Source: Candidatus Saccharimonadota bacterium
GTDB lineage: Bacteria; Patescibacteriota; Saccharimonadia; Saccharimonadales; UBA4665
Length of the DNA stretch: 32,000 nucleotides
Reading direction: 5' to 3'
NCBI GenBank assembly: GCA_016699935.1
Contig: CP064992.1
Location: 240,001-272,000 of the forward strand
This document shows positions 1,597 to 22,857 of this stretch, in pieces. Numbering within the stretch: position 1 is the stretch's first letter; each line of letters opens with the position of its first letter. The notes beneath the pieces are model-generated. The model was not told where the DNA came from. It searched no databases and saw only the letters and a list, made by a program, of their open reading frames with translations. The position numbers and the translations under genes were made by a program.

Positions 1597-3108
1597 ATGA
1601 CTACTCAAACAAATGAACGAATCGGTGATTTTGTGGCGCGAGTGCGCCAAGAACGTGGTATGACCCAGGCAGAACTAGCCAAGCGTCTTGGTACCAGCCA
1701 ATCAGCCATTAACCGCATAGAAAAAGGTGGCCAAAACTTGAGCCTCGAGACGCTTGGTCGGCTGAGCGAGGCGCTCAATAAGCAAATAATCTCACTTGGC
1801 AGCGGCTCGGTGAATTTGCGAATCGAAGGCGGCCATGAGCTACACGGTAATATCCAGCTCAAGACAAGTAAGAATGCCGCCGTGGGGCTACTGTGTGCCG
1901 CACTGCTCAATCACGGCACGACGAAATTTTTGAATTTCCCGCGCATCGAAGAAGTATTTCGTATAATCGAGGTTCTGGAAAGCATTGGCATCCAGGCAAA
2001 ATGGACAAACGGTAACGATCTAGAGCTGCGTCGACCCACCGAGCTCAGGCTCGACAAAATGGATAAAGATGCCGCTCGCAAAACACGAACGGTCATCATG
2101 ATGATGGGTCCGCTCATGCATGAATTTTCGCAGTTCAAGATTCCCTACGCCGGTGGCTGCAAGCTGGGTGAGCGGACGGTCGAACCGCATCTGTTTGCCC
2201 TGCAAGAATTTGGCTTAGGTGTCAAAGCTACGAGCGGTCACTACCAAGTTACTGTCACACCGAGACCAGCTGGCAGATTCGCGCTCTACGAGATGGGTGA
2301 TACTGTCACCGAAAATGCTCTCATGGCTGCAGCTGGGCGCGACGAGGAAACTACCATCGAATTGCCAGCGCCAACTACATGGTTCAGGACGTGTGTTTTC
2401 CTTCGAAACTTGGTGTCCGCATCGATGGCATCGGCACCAGTACGCTGCGCGTTCACGGTGTCAAAAACATCAAAAATATCACCTATGCGCCAGCCGAAGA
2501 TCCGATTGAAGCTATGTTTTCATAGCCGCCGCCGTTACGACAAATTCTGAGATTACCATTGAACGCGCCGATAGCCTTTGTTACGCTTGAGCTACTGAAG
2601 CTCAAGAAGATGGGTCTTCGTTATGAGGTTACCAATCGTTATCCTGCCGCAAATGGCAAGACAGAGCTCGTCGACCTGCACATCTTCAAGCACAATGGTG
2701 AGCTGCACGCCCTCGTAGACAAAATCCACTCCCTTCCCTTATCCTGGCGTCAATACCGATAATCTACCGTATTTTGTCCCAATCTGCGCCGTTGTAAAGG
2801 CCGCACCCTCATCCATGACTGGATGTACGAAAACCGAGCCATCTACTATACAGAAGTAACAAAAATTGGTGCAACCGTGGGCTCGCCGACCCGCACCGCG
2901 TGTACATCACTGGACCAACCAAGTTCACTCGTGCCGATGTGTTTTGCCCCCTGCCCTTCGTCCCGCTAGCCTGCTCCTCATCGGCATGCTAGCTGCTGAC
3001 GGCGTTTCTACACTGCGCAATATCTACACCATTCAGCGTGGCTATGAAGATCTCGCTGAACGCCTCAATAGCCTGGGTGCCCACATAGAAGTATTCCACG
3101 AAATCTAA
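1597..3108 (+). pseudogene. murA: XRE-family HTH domain fused to UDP-N-acetylglucosamine 1-carboxyvinyltransferase (MurA). As sequenced it is broken by about 7 frameshifts (fragments 1597-2550, 2559-2762, 2866-3108 and short pieces)
   Basis: The N-terminus IGDFVARVRQERGMTQAELAKRLGTSQSAINRIEKG is a classic HTH_3/XRE motif. It is followed by MurA: LRIEGGHELHGNIQLKTSKNAA, and active-site Cys in PYAGGCKLGERTVEPH. The rest of MurA (ENALMAAA.., IDGIGTSTLRVHGV, YPGVNTDNLPYF, IHDWMYENR, LADPHRVYITGP, LRPASLLLIGMLAADG, RGYEDLAERLNSLGA) is readable only by switching frame near 2360, 2518, 2568, 2742, 2797, 2881 and 2949. Most switch points are at homopolymers. Confidence 0.85.
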
Positions 3109-3118
3109 GAGTTCATTC

Positions 3119-4825: not shown

Positions 4826-5488
4826 CTAGATGTTAAGTATAGCAGATACCCAACCCTTTAATCTACGGTAGAGACGCACACCTTTAGCTGTATCGCCTTC
4901 GCTTCTGACCGAGATACGTACAGTGCCATACGGTAATTTGCCGTTGTGTGAAATTGCTTTGCCAATTCTTCTATCTACCTGCGTTTTACCACATCGCAGA
5001 TTGGGAATGCCAATAATATTACGCCAATATTTCAGACATACTTCTTCGTCTGTTTCTGGATAGATATGCAGTGTCATGAAGATGTTTTCGTCTCGTAACC
5101 CACAGATCTCTTTTAGCCATCCTACCCACAGTCTCACAACATCTGGATCTGAGTTGGCAAGTCGTATTTGTTCTATCGTCTTTGATCCCTCACCAATCCA
5201 TAAACCGATACCGACCATCCACAAATCTCTCCTACTAATGTCGCCTACTTCATCTTTTCCTAGCTGTAATAGCTCTGCAATTTCGCATATTCTTTCATCC
5301 CGCTTTCTTATACCATATGCGTATCGTCCAGATTGAATTCTGTGCAATGCTTCAGCGTTTGGCGTGTACGGTCTTTCGCGAAACCAGCCGCTTAGCGTTG
5401 CCATAGGTACACCTAATTGGTTGTGGATCATACGGTATGAATAACCGCTGTCCCGAAGTTTTGTGGCAGCAATTCGATTTATATTCAC
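4826..5488 (-). CDS. HTH domain plus LAGLIDADG-like homing-endonuclease-like protein (hypothetical)
   Basis: N-terminal resolvase-type HTH (LRDSGYSYRMIHNQLGVPMATLSGWF). The motif LWMVGIGLWIGEGSK resembles the LAGLIDADG dodecapeptide. GTG start at 5488. The assignment rests on motif resemblance only. Confidence 0.5.
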   Translation of the reverse strand: MNINRIAATKLRDSGYSYRMIHNQLGVPMATLSGWFRERPYTPNAEALHRIQSGRYAYGIRKRDERICEIAELLQLGKDEVGDISRRDLWMVGIGLWIGEGSKTIEQIRLANSDPDVVRLWVGWLKEICGLRDENIFMTLHIYPETDEEVCLKYWRNIIGIPNLRCGKTQVDRRIGKAISHNGKLPYGTVRISVRSEGDTAKGVRLYRRLKGWVSAILNI

Positions 5489-5553
5489 TATGTAAGTCTA
5501 GCAATACATGTATATACGTTCAATATACTTTGCTATTATCAGACAGGTGCCGT

Positions 5554-5618
5554 GCCCTGGTAGCTCAGTTGGACAACCTTGAGCGAATTATAAACGCAGA
5601 CGCTGCTCTATCTAACTG
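5554..5618 (+). repeat. tRNA-Arg-derived fragments: a direct copy of positions 1-20 (5554-5573) and an inverted copy of the D-loop/D-stem region (5603-5618)
   Basis: GCCCTGGTAGCTCAGTTGGA matches tRNA 5669-5688 with 1 mismatch, and the GGTGC flank is also shared. CTGCTCTATCTAACTG is the reverse complement of CAGTTAGATAGAGCAG, compared with tRNA CAGCTGGATAGAGCAG. Confidence 0.7.
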
Positions 5619-5668
5619 GAACCGCAACATTTTTAATCGAATGAGTTATTATATAAACAGTGGTGCTT

Positions 5669-6682: not shown

Positions 6683-7624
6683 GTGAAAGTGTACGCTTAT
6701 ACCATGCCATCCCAGATGAAAAAGCGAAATTTCTTTGAACGCAGACTTGACCAGTTTGACCGATTCCAACAGCACCATCACAAGGTCGGATTTCCGTTTG
6801 CTGTTGCAAAAAAATACAGCGATGACGATGCTGGCTACCAGGCGGCACTTATCGCCTATTACGGGTTCGTTTCACTTTTTCCACTTCTCATCGCGGCAAC
6901 GGTCACGCTGCAAATACTTGCACAGGATAAGCCGGAACTACAAGAGAAATTCCTGAGTGGTGTTACGAGCTACTTTCCTGCCCTCGGAGATAGCTTGGCC
7001 GCAAGCATCAATACGCCAAGCAAAACGGGTCTCGCACTGCTTCTAAGCCTGCTTGTCACCTTCTACGGCGCACGTGGCGTCGCCCACGCCGTTCAGCACG
7101 TACTAAACCATGTTTGGGCCGTACCTCGAATACGTCGCGCTGGGTTCCCCAAATCTACTATCAAAAGTTTCGGCATCATTTTTTACGCCGGTACTGGTTT
7201 CCTTGTCGCCGCTTCATTGACTGGTTACGCAGCGGCGACAAGTCACGCATTGCTACTGAGGCTACTGCTCGGGACACTTGGGTTCATCGCTCTCTTTGCC
7301 GTTTTTTGGGGAGTATTTACATTTGGCTCATCGGCTCGAAAACGGCCAATCGCCAATGTGCCGGGTGCACTCGTTGCAGCTATCGGCTTTTTGGTTCTGC
7401 AAACCATAGGTGGATATCTTGTAGCTCATTTCCTCCGTACCCAAACCGGGCTCAACGCTCAGTTTGCGGTGATCTTAGCCATATTGTTCTGGCTATACCT
7501 GCAGGCACAAGTATTCCTATACGCTGTAGGAATTAACACCGTACGGCACTATCGTCTCTGGCCACGAAGCATCACACCTGTACCCCCAAATGTGGCCGAT
7601 ATAAAGCATACAAACTGTATATGA
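6683..7624 (+). CDS. YihY/BrkB-family integral membrane protein
   Basis: Family signature AGYQAALIAYYGFVSLFPLLI followed by multiple TM segments. The true start may be an internal ATG (about 6704 or 6713). Confidence 0.75.
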   Translation: MKVYAYTMPSQMKKRNFFERRLDQFDRFQQHHHKVGFPFAVAKKYSDDDAGYQAALIAYYGFVSLFPLLIAATVTLQILAQDKPELQEKFLSGVTSYFPALGDSLAASINTPSKTGLALLLSLLVTFYGARGVAHAVQHVLNHVWAVPRIRRAGFPKSTIKSFGIIFYAGTGFLVAASLTGYAAATSHALLLRLLLGTLGFIALFAVFWGVFTFGSSARKRPIANVPGALVAAIGFLVLQTIGGYLVAHFLRTQTGLNAQFAVILAILFWLYLQAQVFLYAVGINTVRHYRLWPRSITPVPPNVADIKHTNCI

Positions 7625-8163
7625 GGCGTGAAACTTTTACGCGCTGACTAGACCAAACGTAATTGCTGCATTTTCGATTTACAAAAGCCGTTCAAGTTAC
7701 TATCATAATGGTAATGCATAGAAAGTTCTGTTGGTTTGCTCATCGCTGCCTCACTGATTATTAGCGCCTCTTTTATATAACTATAATGCCAAAGTAGCCC
7801 GACCAACGAAGAGGCCGCCTTGAAACAACCCCGAGGTTTCCAGGCAAAATCTGACTGCGCAAAAACTCCAACAACAGCAGTACATATAGCAACAAATACG
7901 AAATTTGACTTCCCTACGTCTTGTCTTCCCCATGGCTGGGTGAGTCAACAATAACAAAACCCCACAACAATCATTGAAATAGTCTGCCAAACCCGTTATA
8001 ATCACCTCTGTTTTCTGCTTGTTGCAGCTAACAAAACTCAATCCAAGGAGCGAAACGACTGAATGGAGTTTTGAGAGGAAACATCCGGCTGAGACTGGAG
8101 CTCGGCGAAAGAAGATTTATCTTGTTTCGGCGCAGCGAAGATCGTTGCCGTGTTGTGACGAAA

Positions 8164-8241
8164 GCCGGATGTGGCTCAGTTGGTTAGAGCGCCTGCTTGT
8201 GGCGCAGGAGGCCGTGGGTTCAAGTCCCATCATTCGCCCCA
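8164..8241 (+). tRNA. tRNA-His (anticodon GUG) with encoded G-1 and CCA
   Basis: Anticodon stem CCTGC/GCAGG, loop TT-GTG-GC; T-arm GTGGG-TTCAAGT-CCCAT; G-1 opposite C73. The 1-72 pair is C-C as sequenced. Confidence 0.85.
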
Positions 8242-8382
8242 AGTTGAAACCCTTGCGAAAACGGGGTTTTGCTTTGGTCAGAGCGGAGGCTTGAACGCCA
8301 TTGCCAGTGGCGGTGGCCGGACCCGTAGCCTGTAAGTTCAGGTCCGAATGACATGAGGAGAGCAGTCCCATCATTCGCCCCA
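8242..8382 (+). other. tRNA-His-linked module: 122-nt spacer ending in an exact 19-nt copy of the tRNA 3' end (AGTCCCATCATTCGCCCCA, 8364-8382 = 8223-8241)
   Basis: The exact repeat was verified. The spacer starts with a hairpin AAACCC..GGGTTT and contains GGACC..GGTCC and CCTG-TAAGTT-CAGG hairpins. It is followed by the long hairpin CATACAAAGGAGTCGAC..GTCGGCTCTTTGTATG (8381-8420). Confidence 0.5.
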
Positions 8383-8441
8383 TACAAAGGAGTCGACCCA
8401 TGCAGTCGGCTCTTTGTATGAATGAATATTCTTTCATATTG

Positions 8442-9069
8442 CTATGAGACGTACTGCAGCAATAACCCAATCGATACTGGCACTAAAAGATTATCAAAAC
8501 CAAGGGCGGCTATGTTTTCTAAAAATGTTGCGCCTAGTGCGCCAGCTACAACATATTGCCAATCAGCCCACATTATCCGAAAGTTGGCTGTACACCAGTA
8601 AAGCAAGTGATTACAAAAATGTCATGCTGCCTGCTAAGCTTTACTTCGGCCAAACAGGTGATATTTATTTTGTGTACCGTATCTACTGCCGACAATAGCG
8701 GCAAAACCATCGGCTAGTGCCATTTGCAATAGCAGTTGCATAATACCTTGGAAGTAGTGGTACATGTCAAAAGTCCAACACTTAGGGCAAAAATATTTCG
8801 CCGTAAGTCGGCCGCTGCACACTGCCAATGGCTCGAAACAACCCTGTCCACATAGAAATAAGACCACTGCAAAAAAGCCAAACTTATTAACCGAATTTCT
8901 GACCAGTCAAGAAAATAAGGCCAAAAGGCCACAAAGGTTCCAACTGAAACATGCACGAACTTTCGTCCAACTTCCGCCGTGTAGCCAATGTCGTCGCCAG
9001 CCCCATTCCGAAATCAATAAATGCCAAAACGACCACAACCGCCAGAAACATGTTTGTTAGATTCATCAC
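8442..9069 (-). pseudogene. CdsA/dolichol-kinase (CTP_transf_1) family integral membrane protein; at least 3 frameshifts as sequenced
   Basis: Fragments in three frames join to a typical family member: FLAVVVVLAFIDFGMG.., VHVSVGTFVAFWPYFLDW, R..IFALSVGLL, LALADGFAAIVGSRYG, KSLAGSMTF, GATFLENIAALGFDNLLVPVSIGLL. Confidence 0.5.
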
Positions 9070-9184
9070 CAGTAATTGTACGCTTGCGACTAGTAAGCAA
9101 CAAGGCTGGCGAGTAGAAAATCAAAATCGTTTCGCTGATCGGTCGAAAAAGTATATTGGTTCAGCCATGCGCTGACGGCGTCGT

Positions 9185-9781
9185 TCACCCAGCAGCTTCA
9201 GCAAAATTACGGTAGTACGCCACCGAAACTACTCTATAACGTGAGCCGTTGATTTGCTTGTAACCGTTGCGCACAAAACACCTTCGACAAGTAGGTTTGA
9301 TACGTTTCAGATATAATGTAGCCACCTTCTTTGCTGGGTAGACTTCGTTCGGCAAAATCGACAGCCATTCCACTGCCAGATATATTGTGCCACTCAGTGT
9401 TGTAACTGCTCAGTGCCGGCATTTCTTTTGTGGCTCTAGGCAGCCGACACCCGTCCGACAGAGGTTGACCAGTCTTCGCTGACCCCACAACGCTAAAGTG
9501 GGTTTGCCGAAAAGTTTATCTGCTGTCGAAAGCCTGTATCGGACGGAACAATCTTTGTATCGACAATTGTGGCAGTCCCCAGCTACTTGGGTGCAGAATC
9601 TAGCACCAAAAGTTTTTGTCTTGGAAGTCGGTTTTACCGTTTCCGCAGGAAAGCTCGCTTCAGTTTTTGACTGGGAAGATGGCTCGGTAGGTGGCACCAT
9701 TTTATCTTGCTTGGCGGTAGTTTTTACTGCTTTGTCTGGCGCATTTGCAGTCCGATTACCTAGCACAAATCCTAATATCAA
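9185..9781 (-). pseudogene. possible secreted L,D-transpeptidase (YkuD)-like protein, frameshifted; weak call
   Basis: Low-complexity Pro/Ser/Thr/Lys N-terminal region. One frame contains GQPLSDGCRLP, which resembles the YkuD SHGC[IV]R[LM] active-site motif. The pieces are spread over 3 frames. Confidence 0.3.
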
Positions 9782-9983
9782 CGCTCAGCTAGCAACTAAT
9801 ACCTATTAGTAGGTATACTAGCTTTTTGTATGAAAAGACTGTCTTTTGCTGTTTGCCTCGTCATTTTTGTGTTTCCGGATTTGATTCTTGCCTTTGCATT
9901 TACTACCTCCCGATCTATATCATAATATTACTCGCAAGACTCATGAATGCAAACAGCATTTAATTGTTTACTAGAATACCGTA

Positions 9984-10108
9984 TGGTCGGGGTGGCGGGA
10001 TTATCGTTCCGCTCTGGCGGGACTCCTCCTACAGTGCTCGCACAAACTCAAGCCAGCATGATTTTGTGCTACGCTCCTCGTCCGCGAACCAAACGCGGTT
10101 ACTGCACC
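9984..10108 (-). ncRNA. candidate structured element X1 (125 nt) ending in a tRNA-like 3' tail AATCCCGCCACCCCGACCA
   Basis: Homologous to X2 (10464-10587). Shared blocks are GGTTnGCGGACGAGnAGCG and CGAGCACyGyAGGArGGAGTCCCGCCAGAGCGGrACGmTAATCC. Also has the hairpin GTCCCGC-CAGA-GCGGAAC and a central hairpin GCACAAA..TTTGTGC. The strand is inferred from the CCA tail. Confidence 0.4.
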
Positions 10109-10123
10109 ATGTCACATACAACC

Positions 10124-10158
10124 ATATAAAATGGCCACAAAATGTGGCCATTTTATAT
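10124..10158. terminator. 16-bp perfect inverted repeat ATATAAAATGGCCACA-AAA-TGTGGCCATTTTATAT directly 3' of the tRNA-Pro(GGG)-like gene
   Basis: Verified base by base. U-rich on both sides, so it could act as a bidirectional terminator or a recombination site. Confidence 0.5.
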
Positions 10159-10160
10159 AG

Positions 10161-10230
10161 TCGAGGTAACGGATTTGAACCCACGACCTCGTCGTCCCAG
10201 ACGCGCGCTACCAAGCTGCGCTACACGGCG
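10161..10230 (-). tRNA. tRNA-Pro (GGG)-like, defective: normal from position 1 to the T-loop, with a non-complementary 3' end
   Basis: CGCCGTG-TA-GCGC-AGCTTGGTA-GCGC, then an anticodon arm CGTC-TGGGAC-GACG (6-nt loop, one T short), then GTGGG-TTCAAAT. The following CCGTTACCTCGA pairs with neither the T-stem nor the acceptor. A TATACT promoter box lies about 15 nt upstream. Confidence 0.55.
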
Positions 10231-10463
10231 TGATTAACAGGGGTAAGTATATCTAAATTGGGATGATATTGCTAGTAGACATGTGGTTCATATGAACTTG
10301 CAATGCTAAATGATACTTTAAGGAAGTCTACAATGTATTAATAACACAAAAAGGACGAAACCCTTACACCTGTAGAGTTGTGTGATTTATCGGCCAAAAA
10401 AATGATTCCCTGTTTACGTAAATCCTGAGGTTAAAGAAGCAGAGCTTGTTCTAGGCATTTATG

Positions 10464-10587
10464 TGGTCAGGGAGACAGGATTAGCGTCCCGCTCTGGCGG
10501 GACTCCTTCCTGCGGTGCTCGACAGAAAAGAACCAGCTCTTTTCTGTCTGCGCTCTCGTCCGCAACCTGCGAGCGCAAGTCCGCACC
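10464..10587 (-). ncRNA. candidate structured element X2 (124 nt) ending in AATCCTGTCTCCCTGACCA, a copy of the tRNA-Pro(UGG) 3' end
   Basis: See X1. The central hairpin GACAGAAAAGA-GCTGGT-TCTTTTCTGTC differs in sequence from X1 but keeps the pairing. The tail matches tRNA 10636-10653 except for one extra T. Confidence 0.4.
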
Positions 10588-10601
10588 ACATTCACCAACA
10601 T

Positions 10602-10632
10602 GAAAAAACCTCAACTTCACTGAGGAGTTTTC
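10602..10632 (-). terminator. intrinsic terminator after tRNA-Pro(UGG)
   Basis: On the minus strand: AAAACT-CCTCA-GTGAAGT-TGAGG-TTTTTTC. Confidence 0.6.
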
Positions 10633-10635
10633 ATA

Positions 10636-10712
10636 TGGTCGGGAGACAGGATTTGAACCTGCGACCCGGCGGTCCCAAAACCGCGTGCGCTACCGGACTG
10701 CGCCACTCCCCG
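10636..10712 (-). tRNA. tRNA-Pro (anticodon UGG), CCA encoded
   Basis: CGGGGAG-TG-GCGC-AGTCCGGTA-GCGC, T-arm GCAGG-TTCAAAT-CCTGT. As sequenced the anticodon loop is 8 nt (TTTTGGGA) and the 3' acceptor strand is 6 nt (CTCCCG). Confidence 0.85.
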
Positions 10713-10833: not shown

Positions 10834-11445
10834 CTATTTGATAGCCCTTTTCGTACCAAACCAGCGGTGGGCGAGCCAGGTTTGCAAAATAAAGCATGCC
10901 AGAGCAACGGCGCTGAGCAGCGCTAGACCTAGAATAATTAGCTGGGACTCTACTGTGTGACTACTGAAGCGGGCGGCGCAAATAATTAGCAGCGGCATGA
11001 TTGCAAAGAAAACGCTGACCCAAAACTGAACTCGTGCAGTGAGTAGCTTTCGTTTACGGGCGGGGATTTTTTCTAGCGGTTTGTGAGCGATGACAGGCAC
11101 TGTTTTTTCGGTGGCAACATGCACGACCTTGGTGGCAGCTCTGGCGGCACTAGGAATGTATTTAGCGAAGATGACATATATGACAAGCGCAACAATCCCG
11201 AGTGCCAGGACTGTAAAGATGATGGTGATAAGGAGTGACGGTTCAAATGCTGCAGCTTCAACAGGCTTCAGTTCCACGGGTTGCGGTTCAACTTCAGGGA
11301 ATATTGTCTTACCTACCTCAGACTCGAAAAACCCTGGCAAATACAACGCCAGAAGCCATAACCACTCCATAAACACCGTAAAATACCCCACCCCGCCAAG
11401 CAACCTCAAAACAAATGTTTTATATGGTTTCAACTTCTTAGCCAT
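10834..11445 (-). CDS. hypothetical membrane protein (about 4 TM)
   Basis: Intact 203-aa ORF with several hydrophobic helices. No recognisable family. Confidence 0.55.
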   Translation of the reverse strand: MAKKLKPYKTFVLRLLGGVGYFTVFMEWLWLLALYLPGFFESEVGKTIFPEVEPQPVELKPVEAAAFEPSLLITIIFTVLALGIVALVIYVIFAKYIPSAARAATKVVHVATEKTVPVIAHKPLEKIPARKRKLLTARVQFWVSVFFAIMPLLIICAARFSSHTVESQLIILGLALLSAVALACFILQTWLAHRWFGTKRAIK

Positions 11446-13599: not shown

Positions 13600-16500
13600 C
13601 TAGCGCGCGGTTGTAAATGTCTGCTGCGCCTTCATGTAGTCAATGTCTACTGTCCTTGCGGTTGTGCCAATAGACTTTATGAGAAGTTGACCAAAACCAA
13701 GTGCCCGCGTAGTTCCCGTTGGAATGTTCGTGTTGCGAGTGCCGACATTCGTACCATTTATGTAGTATGTCACGAGCGTACCAGCGGAATTGACCTCAAC
13801 CCGAAGTTTATACCAGGTAGCTGCTGTAACCGCAGTCGTAGTAGTGTTGAATGTTCGAGTTGAGTTATTTGATGTCATAATCTGCCAGTTTGGAGTAGCT
13901 GCTGAACCGGTCGAGACGCCGCCCTCGTCGTACACAAAGGCAGCAGCATCAACTTGGTTGGCTGCCGTTGCCGTGTCAAGTAGACCAACAACTAGCTGGT
14001 AGCGCTGGGTAGCATCTGAAAGCGTGGCAATGTTGATCGCCGTTTCATACGCCATTGAACCTCCGCCAAGTGCGATAGCACTGGTACTCGACATAAAAGC
14101 TGTTCGCCCAGTTGCTGAAGTCCTGGTTGTGCTCCTGTACAACCCCGGACGATTCGCAGCTGTTGTGGCAGTAGCGGCCGTCGACCCCGTGGAGTTTGTG
14201 GCAAACACGTCAGATCCAGTGGTCGTTTCATTACCAATCAGATCGGTAAAGAAATAGTATGCTGTCGTTGTGTCTGTTTGGCTAGCGGGAGCCGATATAC
14301 AATCTTTCCATGTGCTGGACTCGTAGCACCGGAATTTCGCAAGCGACGTGTTGTAGTAGATAGCGCCGTTGGTTGCAAGCACATTGCCTTCTGTCGTAAT
14401 GGAGTCCAGTACTAGTGCGGCACCGGTCGCAATAGCGCTACCCGTATCACCTATGTATATATTGCCAGCGTCAGACACCTCAAAAGCAATCGTACCAGCA
14501 TCCTGGATTGCAAATTTCCCAGTTGAGTTTAGGTTTATATTGAAGTTATTCGCACCTAAGCTCACAGTAGTAGCAACGTCAAGACTAAGGGTGTCGCTAA
14601 GCTCTGTGAAGTTCAGGCTGTCAGGTGAGATATCTGCTGCGGCGATAGTACCATCAGTTATTTCGCCAGTTTCTATGGTTTGCCCGAGTTTCGTAACATT
14701 TGTGCTCAGCGCAGCATCTGCCACAGAACCCGTACCACTTATGGTCAACGCACCGGCGACATTGGCGTCGGTCAGTTCCGGTGTGAAAGTCAGTGAGCTG
14801 AGGTCAAAGGTGCCACTCGTGATGGTGCCTGTATTATCCCCATCGAAAATGAAAGCTTCCACGTTGGCTTCAGTGAGGTTATTATCTGCGGCGCAAGCTA
14901 GACATCGGTCGTTTCGTTCCACTTAAGAACCTGTGTGTCGGAGCAGCCCTGCAAAGACCAACCCCTGAAGCCAATATCTCAATACCTGAACCAGATGAAG
15001 CTGTTGCAGAGAGCGCATCTGTTGCAGCAAATGTTTTTATCGCAATGTCATCGGCATTTACCGTAATGCCGTTGCCAGCACCTATGTTGAGTGTGGTGGT
15101 TCCGCCAAGAAACAGCACCACCATTGGCTAGACCGTTACCAGCCGAAATCGTGAGTCCGCTATTGGCTAGCATCGTGTTGGTTACCCCGCCAGTACCTAT
15201 GCCCAATGTAAAGGGCGAGCCGCCAGTACCTGAGCCGCTTCGTGTCAGACCACCGCTAACTGTGGCGTCGGTGACTTCATTGCCTACTATGCCATCTGCT
15301 TCACTAGTAAGATAGCCGTTGTTGTTGGCGTAGGCATCGACTTGGGCTTCGTTCAGAACCGTATCGGTGTCTACGTCAGCGGCACAAGCCCAGACAGAAC
15401 CATTCCACTTGGCTATCTGGTTTGGACTACAGCTGAGACCAGCGAGGACATCAGTGTTGTCGAGGTAGCCAGACAGGTCAACACTCCCGCCATTGACGAG
15501 ACTGAGGCTGTTCCCGGCTAGACCGAGTGTTTGGGCGTCGGTGTTGTCTAGATACGGGCTGAGGTCAACGGTGCCGGCATTGCCAGAAATACTGAGGATG
15601 TCACTGGCAACTGAGATGTTTTGGGTGTCGGTGTTGTCTAGATAGCCTGCGAGCGAGACAGAGTTGCCGTTGCTAATACTCAGGCTGTTAGCGGCCAGGT
15701 TGAGGGTTTGCTGGTCGGTATCGGTGTCGGTGTCGACGTCTGCGGCACAGGCCCAGGCAGAACCGTTCCACTTGGCTATCTGGTTTGGACTACAGCTGAG
15801 GCTGGCTAGGGTGTCTGTATCAGTATCGTCGAGGTAGGGACTAAGGTCGATGGTACTGGCATTGCCAGTGATGGATACGGTGTTACCGGTGCGAGAGATA
15901 GCTTGAGAGTCTGTATTGTCGAGCAGGCTAGATTGGTCAGCCGTGTTGCCACCGGCAATCGTAAGAATCTGAGTACCAGGTTGTAGCTGAGAGTCTGGGC
16001 ATCCGTGTTATCGAGGTAGGCGCTGAGGTCTATGGTGCCAGGATCGCCACTGATGCTGAGAATATCTGCAACGAGGCTCAGGCTCTGGATTTCGTTCGTG
16101 ATGCTACCATCGACTTCGCTGGTAAGGTAGCCATTGTTGTTGGCGTAGGCATCGACCTGGACCTCATTGAGGACTGTATCGGTGTCTACGTCAGCGGCAC
16201 AAGCCCAGGCACTGCCGTTCCACTTGGCTATCTGGTTTGGTGAGCACGACAGACCGGCGAGGCTGTCGGTATCTATGCTGGATAGGTCAATCGTGTTACC
16301 GCCAGTAATAGACGGGTTGGTGCCGACCAGGCCAAGCGTCTGGGCATCGGTATTTATGGGTGCGAGATCGATGCTGTTGCCACCAGAGATAGTGAGGGTG
16401 GTGCCGACCAGGCCGACCGTCTGGGCGTCGGTGTTGTCTAGGTAGCTGGCGAGATCGACGGTAGATGCATTACCCGTAATGCTCAGGGTATCTCCTGCTA

Positions 16501-21344: not shown

Positions 21345-22857
21345 CTACTTGGCGAATTCGATGGCGCGGGTTTCACGTATGACGTTGACTTTGATGGTAC
21401 CTGGGTAGTTCATGCTGCTTTCGATCTTGGTCGCGATGTCTCGAGCCAAGCGTATGGCACTAAGGTCATCAATCTGCTGTGGCCGCACAAAAACTCGGAC
21501 TTCACGGCCAGCGCTGATGGCATAGGACTTTTCGATACCTGGGAAACCATTGGCAATGTTTTCCAGCTCTTTCATGCGCTCACCGAAGTTTTCGGCTGAA
21601 ATGTTTCGCGCACCAGGTCGAGCTGCCGATATCGCATCGCATACACGGACAATTAGTGCTTCGACGCTTGTGGCCTCTACATCATCATGATGTTGTTCGG
21701 CTGCCAATGCAACTTCTTCTGGCGCACCGTATTTTCGCAGCATTTCACCTGATATGTGGTGGTGTTTGCCTTCTATTTTGTGTGTCAGTGCCTTGCCCAT
21801 GTCGTGCATAAGCGTGGCGTATTTGGTTACTTGTACGTTGGCTCCCAACTCTTCAGCCAGCATACCGGCCATGTGAGCCATTTCGGTGCTATGTTTGAGA
21901 ACGTTTTGGCCATAACTGGTTCGGAAACGCAACTCACCGAGTAGGTGCAGCAGTTCTTTTGGTATGCCGAGCACTCCAACCTCACGGGCGGCATCTTCAC
22001 CAGCCCGAACAACGTCTTTTTCGACATTTTTCTGAGCTTTTTCGACAACTTCTTCTATACGACCTGGGTGAACACGACCGTCTTTTAGTAGTAGTTCGAG
22101 TGCCTGGCGAGCCACTTCGCGGCGGACAGGGTCAAAACAGCTTAGGACTATGTAGCCAGGTGTATCATCAACCATTATGTCGACACCAGTAGCTCGCTGT
22201 AGCGCCTGGATATTACGACCTTCTTTGCCGATAATTCGACCCTTCATTTCCTCGTCTTCCAGCTTGACGCTGGTGAGAGTTCGCTCGGCGGTAACTTCGC
22301 TACTCATGCGCTCCATAGCTGTCACGATCAGTACACCCGCTTGGTCTTCGGCAGTTTCTTTGGCTTCGTTTTGCATCTTGGCGATCAGACCTGTTAGATC
22401 ATTTTTGATATCGCGCTCGGTCATTTGCATCAGCTTTTCGGCAGCATCGGCCTTGCTGAGCTTGGCAATTTTCTCTAGTTTTTCTTGTTGTTTGACGCGA
22501 ATATCACGTATTTCGTTTTTCAGCGCTTCAACTTCATCCTCGCCAGCACGTAGTTTTTCACTTCGTTTATCGAGCTCGTCGAGCTTTTTGTCGAGCGTGG
22601 TTTCGCGCTGAACGAGACGGTTTTCAAGATCTTTGAGCTCGTTACGACGTGTCTGTTCCTCTTTACGTGCCTCATCAGCCACCTTACGAGCCTCTTCACG
22701 GGCTTCATCGACTAGTTTATCGGCTTCTTTTTTGGCCTTAGCAAGTTCTTTGTTTGCTTTATCATCAGCTTCGGCTGACTTTTTTGCTTAGGTATGTACT
22801 GCCACCATAGCCAAGGCCAAGCCCTGCTACCGCGAGCAATATGGTAATTGGTTCCAT
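21345..22857 (-). CDS. rny: ribonuclease Y (one apparent frameshift near the N-terminus)
   Basis: KH domain GKEGRNIQALQRATGVDIMVDD; HD domain HSTEMAHMAGMLAEELG..LMHDMGKA. The N-terminal TM MEPITILLAVAGLGLGYGG starts at 22857 and joins the main ORF (21345..22682) after a shift at the T6 run 22780-22785. Confidence 0.9.

Follow-up and report, generated by a model that had tools for sequence, protein, structure and literature searches.

Transfer RNA genes are classic landing sites of mobile DNA, and a direct repeat of the 3' segment of a tRNA gene is the classic sign that something has integrated there. The known occupants of such sites are kilobase-sized and bear an integrase. Here we describe a locus that carries this sign on a far smaller scale, in a 32-kb stretch of the Saccharibacteria contig CP064992.1 (hereafter the window, meaning the whole stretch analysed), where tRNA-His is followed by an exact copy of its own last 19 nt. 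Saccharibacteria are ultra-small symbiotic bacteria with 1-Mb genomes, placed in the Candidate Phyla Radiation, and we know of almost no non-coding RNA biology in this lineage. The repeated 19 nt form the 3' arm of an element that belongs to a conserved non-coding family, Family A, whose members are closed by a hairpin stem; the copy in the window is somewhat eroded. The element is most likely neither the deletion remnant of a large island nor a duplicate of the tRNA; it belongs to a family of tRNA-flanking structured elements that is conserved in Saccharibacteria and is not a product of chance.

Several described systems share part of this layout. In tRNA-gene integrative elements and their non-autonomous derivatives, such as cis-mobilizable elements (CIMEs) and satellite or mini islands, as here, a direct repeat running from the T-loop to CCA brackets foreign DNA and leaves the gene intact. 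Tandem accretion and patchy occupancy are common to both as well, and one tRNA-Pro(CGG) gene in the window has apparently had its 3' end replaced. The modules described here differ, however, in being 85-190 nt rather than kilobases long, in having no integrase that we could find nearby, in carrying an additional antisense copy of the tRNA end, and in occurring also as 5' mirror versions. One core family serves at least six tRNA species with arms matched to each locus, and at several loci the repeat runs on through the terminator, its length being that of a homology rather than that of an att core.

Integron attC sites and CTX-phi attP(+) (XerCD) resemble the elements in having an imperfect inverted repeat with its halves 60-110 nt apart, a bulged stem, a variable or branched top, a structure conserved above its sequence and a conserved extrahelical base. 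However, the attC R''/R' consensus (RYYYAAC / GTTRRRY) is absent from the base of the stem, which here reads UGG.../...CCA with GAAC at its inner end, and there is no dif-like site, IntI or cassette array. MITEs, short for miniature inverted-repeat transposable elements, as well as REP-BIME repeats (repetitive extragenic palindromes and bacterial interspersed mosaic elements) are likewise small non-coding repeats in intergenic positions beside terminators; they too have a structured interior between inverted-repeat ends and fall into several families. The ends of MITEs are element-specific, whereas here they copy the local tRNA (His, Leu, Lys, Ser or Gln), and no target-site duplication of 2-10 bp was seen. 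RNAs with tRNA-like ends (the tRNA-like domain of tmRNA, the bacterial Y RNA YrlA, mascRNA and RNase P hairpin substrates, for example the 4.5S precursor) share with the element a helix whose 3' strand is an acceptor/T-stem strand plus NCCA, and a place beside a tRNA on the same strand, but the element has no T-loop or D-loop mimic, its CCA is often paired, a terminator intervenes, and Rfam returns no match. Quasi-palindrome template-switch mutations also place an inverted copy of the flank right after a hairpin and change both arms in concert, but they are a mutational process and cannot explain conserved shared cores.

The family is absent from the Rfam catalogue searched, and full-text literature searches found no description of such elements. 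Rfam 15, applied at gathering and relaxed cut-offs (E<10 for the window, E<1 for metagenome contigs) to the window, to the relatives L002-L008 and to nine metagenome contigs, recovered no element, only tRNAs. Between 8242 and 8420, ARAGORN called no tRNA and Rfam gave no tRNA match at E < 10. A tRNA on the opposite strand was also considered and rejected, the antisense having no T-stem or plausible anticodon loop. Signal recognition particle RNA, tmRNA, 5S rRNA, the sarcin-ricin loop, retron non-coding RNA, the omega RNAs of TnpB and IscB, the IS110 bridge RNA, group II intron domain V and attC were each compared by eye, and in every case the defining motif or the partner gene was lacking.

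A family of hairpin elements at tRNA ends

The material comprises the 32 kb of the source genome and +/-10 kb around the corresponding loci of relatives; L numbers (L001, L003 and so on) denote the related loci and contigs used in the comparison, L128 being the complete genome CP064993.1. An exact repeat of the tRNA-His tail 122 nt downstream had been predicted from the sequence, and it is there: AGTCCCATCATTCGCCCCA occurs twice (Table 1), against 0.01 matches expected by chance, and there is no further copy at up to three mismatches. The spacer opens, as had also been described, with a terminator-like hairpin and its T-run. The hairpin beyond the second copy, placed by the original prediction at 8381-8420 with a stem of about 15 bp, is present in slightly smaller form, its stem being 14 bp long (-16.3 kcal/mol, z = -4.8).

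In the window the element is a non-coding segment of about 107 nt (8276-8382) that follows the tRNA-His terminator. Across Family A, which occurs in Saccharibacteria, the size ranges from about 85 to 145 nt, and the position is on the tRNA strand, immediately after the tRNA terminator. Every copy has its parts in the same order: terminator hairpin, 5' arm, hairpin A, the motif CCGGACCC, one to three variable hairpins, (A/G)AGG and 3' arm, beyond which a second terminator is often present. The 5' arm is an imperfect reverse complement of tRNA positions from about 76 to 53, often beginning with TGG and always ending in GAAC, and the 3' arm is a sense copy of the adjacent tRNA from about position 56 to CCA. 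Beside tRNAs with the T-loop TTCAAGT the arms pair as GGGACUUG with CAAGUCCC, and beside those with TTCGAAT as GGAUUCG with CGAAUCC. All of the family's features, namely the GAAC-ended 5' arm, the GCC-AGU-GGC hairpin, CCGGACCC, the tRNA-copy 3' arm and the position after a terminator, are found at 8276-8382.

The closing helix takes in the 3' strand and CCA in most copies, and the CCA is often paired with UGG. In the window copy the 5' arm is shortened and eroded and the variable hairpin is truncated, the short hairpin of this copy being a reduced form of the GAAGCCYGRAAGTTGCC...GGCAAGTT hairpin of L001, L003, L004, L028, L068 and L128. In its minimum-free-energy fold, CGAATGA (8345-8351) is complementary to TCATTCG of the 3' arm and offers an alternative local pairing. 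The window 5' arm can pair either with the 3' arm or, across the terminator, with the T-loop of the tRNA itself, and 8218-8296 folds as a single long hairpin (z = -2.2).

The spacer had been judged unrelated to those of the two tRNA-Pro loci in the window. Its core does differ from the Pro core family, but the spacer is a member of a conserved family rather than anonymous sequence. After the tRNA-His terminator, L003 and L004 carry ...CTTGAAC-(GCCAGTGCC AGT GGCACTGGC)-CGGACCC-GAAGCCTG..., the same as the window spacer, and the lower stem of hairpin A differs compensatorily between copies. A metagenome scan with the pattern TGCCAGTGGCNNNNNCCGGACCC gave 10 true matches and about 50 chance matches in GC-rich coding DNA. 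In the true matches the core lies 35-45 nt past tRNA-Leu(TAA) (three times), Lys(CTT), Ser(GGA), Ser(CGA) or Gln(CTG), three more being cut at a contig end. These contigs are Saccharimonadales-like, and one Leu-associated contig is from Saccharimonadales, to judge from the relatives of its MFS transporter. In 11 other copies the 3' arm (16-21 nt) matches the copy's own adjacent tRNA. Because the core is shared with elements beside other tRNA species, the element cannot derive from tRNA-His alone.

A covariance model, R1, built on 12 copies including the window, found members outside its training set: L128, after tRNA-His (106 bits), and L134/L135 (102 bits). The window copy, itself a training sequence, scores 76 bits and is the second-weakest member, L062 being the lowest (74 bits). 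Over 14 copies, hairpin A is paired in 100%, with four covarying positions (GC/CG, AU/UA) and U-G as the sole non-Watson-Crick pairs, while in the proximal closing stem pairing reaches 79% and six positions covary. Overall, covariation in the same copies scores 0.375; shuffles give 0.17 +/- 0.02 and slid partners no more than 0.14. The invariance of CCGGACCC is partly by construction, since the motif belonged to the metagenome search pattern. The covariation of hairpin A is not an artefact of retrieval, because its 5' half was absent from that pattern.

Comparison of occupied and empty orthologous tRNA-His sites, which the original prediction had proposed, gave Family A in five of about 14 lineages (the window, L001, L003, L004 and L128) and its absence from nine others, an occupancy that cuts across the phylogeny of the neighbouring BrkB/YihY protein. 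In that phylogeny the window groups with L001, and L003 with L004; by the stem type of hairpin A, L001 joins L004 and the window joins L003 and L128; L001, L003 and L128 have in common a nested 3'-arm insert of about 80 nt and an inverted orientation of the locus. The two stem versions of hairpin A follow neither host clade nor tRNA type, the pattern that a recombining population would give. In L001, L003 and L128 the outer closing stem is altered on both strands (GGUGAGG pairs with CCUCAC or CUUCAC), and the strands still pair where they no longer match the tRNA. In L039 (Lys) and L055 (Gln) nearly the same core, with compensatory changes in one internal helix, is joined to different arms, and L062 and L134, which represent the same Leu locus (adjacent protein 80% identical), show a matched arm change, CTTG/CAAG vs CTCG/CGAG. 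The repeated unit is the tRNA 3' end plus the terminator in L128, L001, L074-Arg, L007-Arg and L041, and tandem copies occur in L006 and L041.

The nested insert, 80-95 nt long (L001 (-) about 3000-3110; L128 (-) 10960-11075), splits the 3' arm between CCCAT and ATCATTCGCCCCA. It starts with a short terminator-like hairpin, and the remaining His 3' end and a copy of the native terminator lie beyond it. In the lineage whose protein P0132 is related to the MFS transporter of L062, a tRNA-Leu gene is followed by an unrelated 321-aa open reading frame (ORF); this arrangement was considered as a full-length version of the element and rejected, the ORF being unrelated and the tRNA end having no repeat.

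Other core families occur in the same layout, at the window Pro loci and in L006, L068-Arg, L074-Arg and L007. It had been claimed that three of the five tRNA loci in the window carry a short module, too regularly for chance. The recurrence stands, and the count rises to four of the five with tRNA-Arg, which has a 5' mirror form. Chance is set aside by a wider count, in which 11 of 49 tRNA genes in 13 syntenic loci carry a copy of their own end, either the 3' end downstream or the 5' end upstream (<=2 mismatches in 16 nt, within 400 nt downstream for 3' ends), and reversed control probes gave no matches.

The suggested likeness of the His locus to the two Pro loci holds for the layout, but one of the Pro "tRNAs" is a pseudogene, and the Pro repeats of the tRNA 3' end are imperfect, unlike the exact His repeat. 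The Pro modules (10464-10603 and 9984-10127) have a core of their own, GCGGACGAG.GCG.AG ... CGAGCAC.G.AGG, which L006 also carries after its tRNA-Pro(CGG) and which has more distant counterparts behind tRNA-Arg(GCG) of L068 and tRNA-Arg of L074. Together, 9984-10233 and 10464-10712 (-) form a tandem duplication of about 480 nt, each unit being a tRNA-Pro plus a module of about 140 nt, in which the 3' part of the module is 86% identical between copies, compared with 72% for the tRNA bodies. The tRNA-Pro-like sequence at 10161-10230 scores 25 bits, under the Rfam threshold. Its body does not differ from that of the L003 tRNA-Pro(CGG), after AAATCC the 3' end is foreign, its 5' acceptor strand is changed and its anticodon loop has a 2-nt deletion; it is a broken tRNA-Pro(CGG) pseudogene, and the canonical Pro(CGG) 3' end, AATCCCGCCACCCCGACCA, is displaced 170 nt downstream, to 9984-10002.

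In the mirror module of tRNA-Arg (5553-5668), the first 21 nt of the tRNA are repeated 115 nt upstream (5553-5573). The parts run in the order sense tRNA 1-21, short core CAACCTTGAGCG... and antisense D-arm (5603-5618). This short core, GCCYTGAGCGC..., builds 5' mirror modules at Arg (window; L006) and at His (L008, L075, L007). The Arg mirror of L006 is a tandem of two units, identical to each other and 105 nt long. In L008 the displaced 5' fragment has kept the conserved native leader.

The hairpin top of Family A recurs in a longer element, TGAGA-(GCCRGTGGC hairpin)-TCGCAAGGGAATC..., which measures about 170-265 nt. It was seen at Pro in L003 and L004, and in L062: as a 3' module at Pro-TGG in L004 (18571-18835), and in 5' form, following partial 5' pieces of tRNAs, in L003 (about 15680-15980 (-)) and L062 (1-300 (-)).

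Table 1. Features of the tRNA-His locus, in window coordinates
Feature	Position	Strand	Basis or description
Promoter-like site TTGAAA-17-TATAAT	7974..8002	+	11/12 consensus positions match; part of motif TATAATCACCTCTGTTTTCTGC
Conserved structured leader ahead of tRNA-His, outside the element	8003..8164	+	RNAalifold consensus, 6 orthologues
tRNA-His(GTG), CCA encoded, G-1 at 8164	8165-8241	+	ARAGORN; Rfam tRNA model 61.5 bits
19-mer AGTCCCATCATTCGCCCCA, first copy, T-loop position 58 to CCA	8223-8241	+	last 19 nt of tRNA-His
Terminator-like hairpin 1, AAACCC..GGGGTTTT + T-run	8247..8275	+	stem 8251-8266
5' arm, degenerate antisense of tRNA 3' end, ends GAAC	8276..8296	+	family alignment
Hairpin A, GCCATTGCC-AGT-GGCGGTGGC	8297..8317	+	9-bp stem, two G-U pairs, AGU triloop, invariant GCC-AGU-GGC top
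Invariant CCGGACCC motif	8317..8324	+	family alignment
CGGA/TCCG helix around short hairpin CCTG-TAAGTT-CAGG	8318..8346	+	fold and alignment
Linker	8347..8363	+	minimum-free-energy fold
19-mer AGTCCCATCATTCGCCCCA, second exact copy, the element 3' arm	8364-8382	+	19/19 identity
Hairpin 2, terminator-like position, weak T tail on + strand	8383-8417	+	14-bp stem

The surrounding tRNA clusters

A gene for a BrkB/YihY-family membrane protein (6683-7624) lies directly upstream of the tRNA-His operon, and this protein has relatives, at 57-78% identity, only in assemblies of Saccharibacteria (TM7, Patescibacteria), the group to which the genome of the window belongs. The gene order Gly-Arg-BrkB-His-...-Pro-Pro is kept among related genomes, and four window tRNAs pass the ARAGORN and Rfam models (Gly, Arg, His and one Pro). 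The promoter/start motif TATAATCACCTCTGTTTTCTGC (window 7985-8010) is nearly invariant and also precedes tRNA units in L003-L006, L074, L075, L128, L129 and L132. The leader that follows it, about 160 nt long, has 45 consensus pairs, 21 of them with compensatory changes; an Rfam search with it found no match, and it could be an undescribed RNA co-transcribed with tRNA-His. A second leader type, GGGAAAAGAGCAGCCCGAGCGGAAACC...GATGAGAAAAACTGAAGGTTTGTCTCAT, replaces or precedes the first upstream of tRNA-His in several relatives (L005/L120 about 11000-11138; L007 about 7040-7170; L002 about 11020-11110; L132), standing in L132 in the opposite orientation behind the same promoter motif. The tRNA-His of the window begins G(-1)-CCGGATG, compared with G(-1)-GCGGATG in all relatives, so that the acceptor stem is topped by a C1-C72 mismatch.

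These tRNA clusters are rearrangement hot spots. The distance from tRNA-His to the Pro genes is 1.7 kb in the window (8241-10233), compared with 4-9 kb in L003-L006, and the window has its Pro genes inverted; tRNA-His also changes direction with respect to the BrkB gene from one lineage to another (L001, L003, L075, L128, L129, L132). About 840 nt separate tRNA-Gly from tRNA-Arg in L003, L004 and the window, but only 7-270 nt in L005-L008, and because this gap differs in size among relatives, the ORF that it holds in the window (4826-5488 (-), 220 aa) is a variable insert. This ORF has no Pfam, PHROGs or PDB match; it may be homing-endonuclease-like, to go by an unverified by-eye impression of a LAGLIDADG-like motif, GIGLWIGEGSK. 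Between tRNA-Cys and tRNA-Leu(TAA), L136/L137 carry an ORF with a weak HNH_3 match (2159-2680), and L062 has a 152-aa ORF at the equivalent position (1975-2433). This would make a second endonuclease-like gene that stands free within a tRNA cluster.

Three genes of the window are short relative to their orthologues: serine hydroxymethyltransferase (SHMT; 264-1313, 349 vs about 428 aa), a helix-turn-helix (HTH)-EPSP synthase fusion (1531-2550, 339 vs 507 aa) and RNase Y (21345-22682, 445 vs 504 aa), which suggests assembly frameshift errors or pseudogenisation. The tRNA-Pro(TGG) at 10637-10712 (-) has an 8-nt anticodon loop, with TTTT vs TTT in relatives, and CCC vs CCCC in its acceptor, and ARAGORN gives it no anticodon name; these oddities are either homopolymer sequencing error or decay. 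Because of the truncated genes and the homopolymer differences in tRNA-Pro, single-base details of the window need to be read with caution.

Cassette, RNA or relic

We lean, tentatively and with slightly less than even confidence, to the hypothesis that the element is a small non-autonomous recombining cassette living at the ends of tRNA genes, where such cassettes most likely spread and persist. The unit would consist of the tRNA 3' end, the terminator, the antisense arm and the core, and would recombine between loci, keeping the tRNA gene intact and leaving a second copy of the tRNA end on the far side of the cassette. The tRNA end itself would be the portable homology, or the target, for the spread and homogenisation of cassettes. 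A candidate for the enzymatic step would be RecA-type recombination after DNA uptake, or some recombinase acting in the T-loop, and selection would preserve the single-stranded folded form, with its arms paired and hairpin A formed.

Several results weigh against this hypothesis. No integrase, transposase or recombinase adjoins any copy (Pfam and PHROGs on the window ORFs, including small ORFs at 8444-9781). Searches of GenBank phages and PLSDB plasmids with blastn gave no core match and no autonomous full-length relative, and pattern scans of IMG/VR viral contigs with three core families gave only chance matches in coding DNA. Family A is present at no more than one copy per 20-30 kb locus, so that multi-copy spread within one genome is not demonstrated. 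As to which end of an occupied site is the native one, the distal end is canonical at Pro(CGG), while at His the proximal terminator, hairpin 1, is of a type found after tRNA-His in L003 and L128 and also at the unoccupied sites of L002 and L008. The tRNA-adjacent terminator thus looks ancestral, and insertion downstream of the gene therefore fits better than insertion into the T-loop. Taken by itself, the window copy has only a marginal folding advantage over shuffled sequence (z = -1.85). Of 13 copies, 10 fold more stably as the sense strand (mean difference 2.5 kcal/mol), which is a weak asymmetry, and the conservation of the core, the compensatory changes and the U-G pairs are equally expected of a functional RNA. 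G-U pairs number 20 and A-C pairs 13; because pair counts and folding energies are too weak, strand asymmetry does not decide between RNA and DNA.

The element could instead be a putative processed trailer RNA of about 107 nt, made by read-through from tRNA-His or from an unrecognised promoter, a proposal that we regard as possible but doubtful, and as the most serious rival of the cassette. The 3' strand of the closing helix would mimic the T-stem and acceptor plus CCA, so that the product would be processed and stabilised, as a tRNA is, by RNase P, 3' exonucleases and the CCA-adding enzyme, hairpin A and CCGGACCC would bind protein or RNA, and gene conversion would keep the arms identical to the tRNA. 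This accords with an element that is always on the tRNA strand and directly downstream, often with its own terminator, and with an invariant core, compensatory stems and a hairpin A that deviates only to U-G. The closing stem that covaries in L001, L003 and L128 despite lost tRNA identity, the slightly better folding of the sense strand, the presence of another conserved structured leader RNA in the tRNA-His operon, the failure to find a mobility enzyme and the ancestral look of the proximal terminator all speak for it as well. However, a strong terminator hairpin stands before every copy, with no room for a promoter, only five of about 14 tRNA-His lineages are occupied, and in many copies the CCA is paired to UGG of the 5' arm and is thus not a free acceptor end. 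Unrelated cores and 5' mirrors in the same layout point to a mechanism of formation or propagation, and not to a single function as RNA. It is because they share this layout, because the terminator always lies between tRNA and element, and because occupancy is patchy and reticulate, that we favour the cassette over the trailer RNA. Also conceivable, although in our judgement unlikely, is an undescribed class of tRNA-end-templated hairpin elements, a few cores moving among tRNA genes and guided by complementarity rather than by an encoded enzyme, or else a family of RNAs that mimic tRNA ends. Each core of such a class would acquire a sense and an antisense copy of the adjacent tRNA end, 3' or 5', and the intermediate could be a self-complementary single-stranded circle or hairpin of about 140-190 nt. 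RNAs that mimic tRNA ends and have a dedicated role in minimal genomes would be an equally novel alternative.

That the modules are functionless by-products of local mutation, either by quasi-palindrome template switching at the terminator or by repair of homing-endonuclease-like cuts, seems to us improbable. A template switch would copy the tRNA end backwards and then forwards, and short-tract gene conversion would keep the copies alike. The tRNA end, terminator and 5' arm do form one long imperfect palindrome, the duplicated unit at several loci is tRNA end plus terminator, ORFs lie between tRNA genes (the HNH_3-like one in L136/L137, the L062 ORF and the Gly-Arg ORF of the window), and template switching yields concerted arm changes without selection. 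Such a process may account for the formation of the arms, but not for the shared cores: homologous cores bearing invariant motifs at six tRNA species, and in lineages with an adjacent protein only about 60% identical, are left unexplained, as is the conserved bulged C in the Leu and Lys 5' arms. Still less probable is that the two 19-mers are attL and attR of an integrase-borne island or prophage in tRNA-His, of which the spacer would be a deletion remnant. A direct repeat of a tRNA 3' end is the signature that such an event would leave, and the broken tRNA-Pro(CGG), with its foreign proximal and canonical distal end, fits replacement of the 3' end. However, no distant second copy of the His 3' end occurs within +/-10 kb among about 14 lineages, and therefore there is no large island at this site, in keeping with the earlier argument that the spacer is too short for a conventional one. 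Moreover, a large element is missing from this site in every relative, no integrase lies in the vicinity, phage, plasmid and viral collections hold no match, and the spacer is conserved with covariation across deep lineages and beside other tRNAs, unlike a random scar. Assembly artefact, or decay of a tandem tRNA-His duplicate, we consider extremely unlikely. The window does show signs of indel errors, in the SHMT, HTH-EPSP synthase and RNase Y genes and in the TTTT/TTT and CCC/CCCC differences of tRNA-Pro. However, assemblies made independently in different studies, from Illumina or long reads, show the same architecture (e.g. L003, L004, L128), and for this reason the repeat is not the assembly duplication that the original prediction had allowed for; nor does the element match a tRNA model even at E < 10.

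Meaning for Saccharibacteria

Non-coding modules of 85-190 nt, for which no enzyme was found, adjoin about one in five of the tRNA genes examined. If the modules are mobile, they would represent a minimal way to colonise essential genes harmlessly, and they would be a source of inversions and rearrangements around tRNA clusters. If they are RNAs, they would constitute a new class of structured RNA. Either way, they explain the "partial tRNA" debris in genomes of the Candidate Phyla Radiation, and they provide a covariance model for its annotation.

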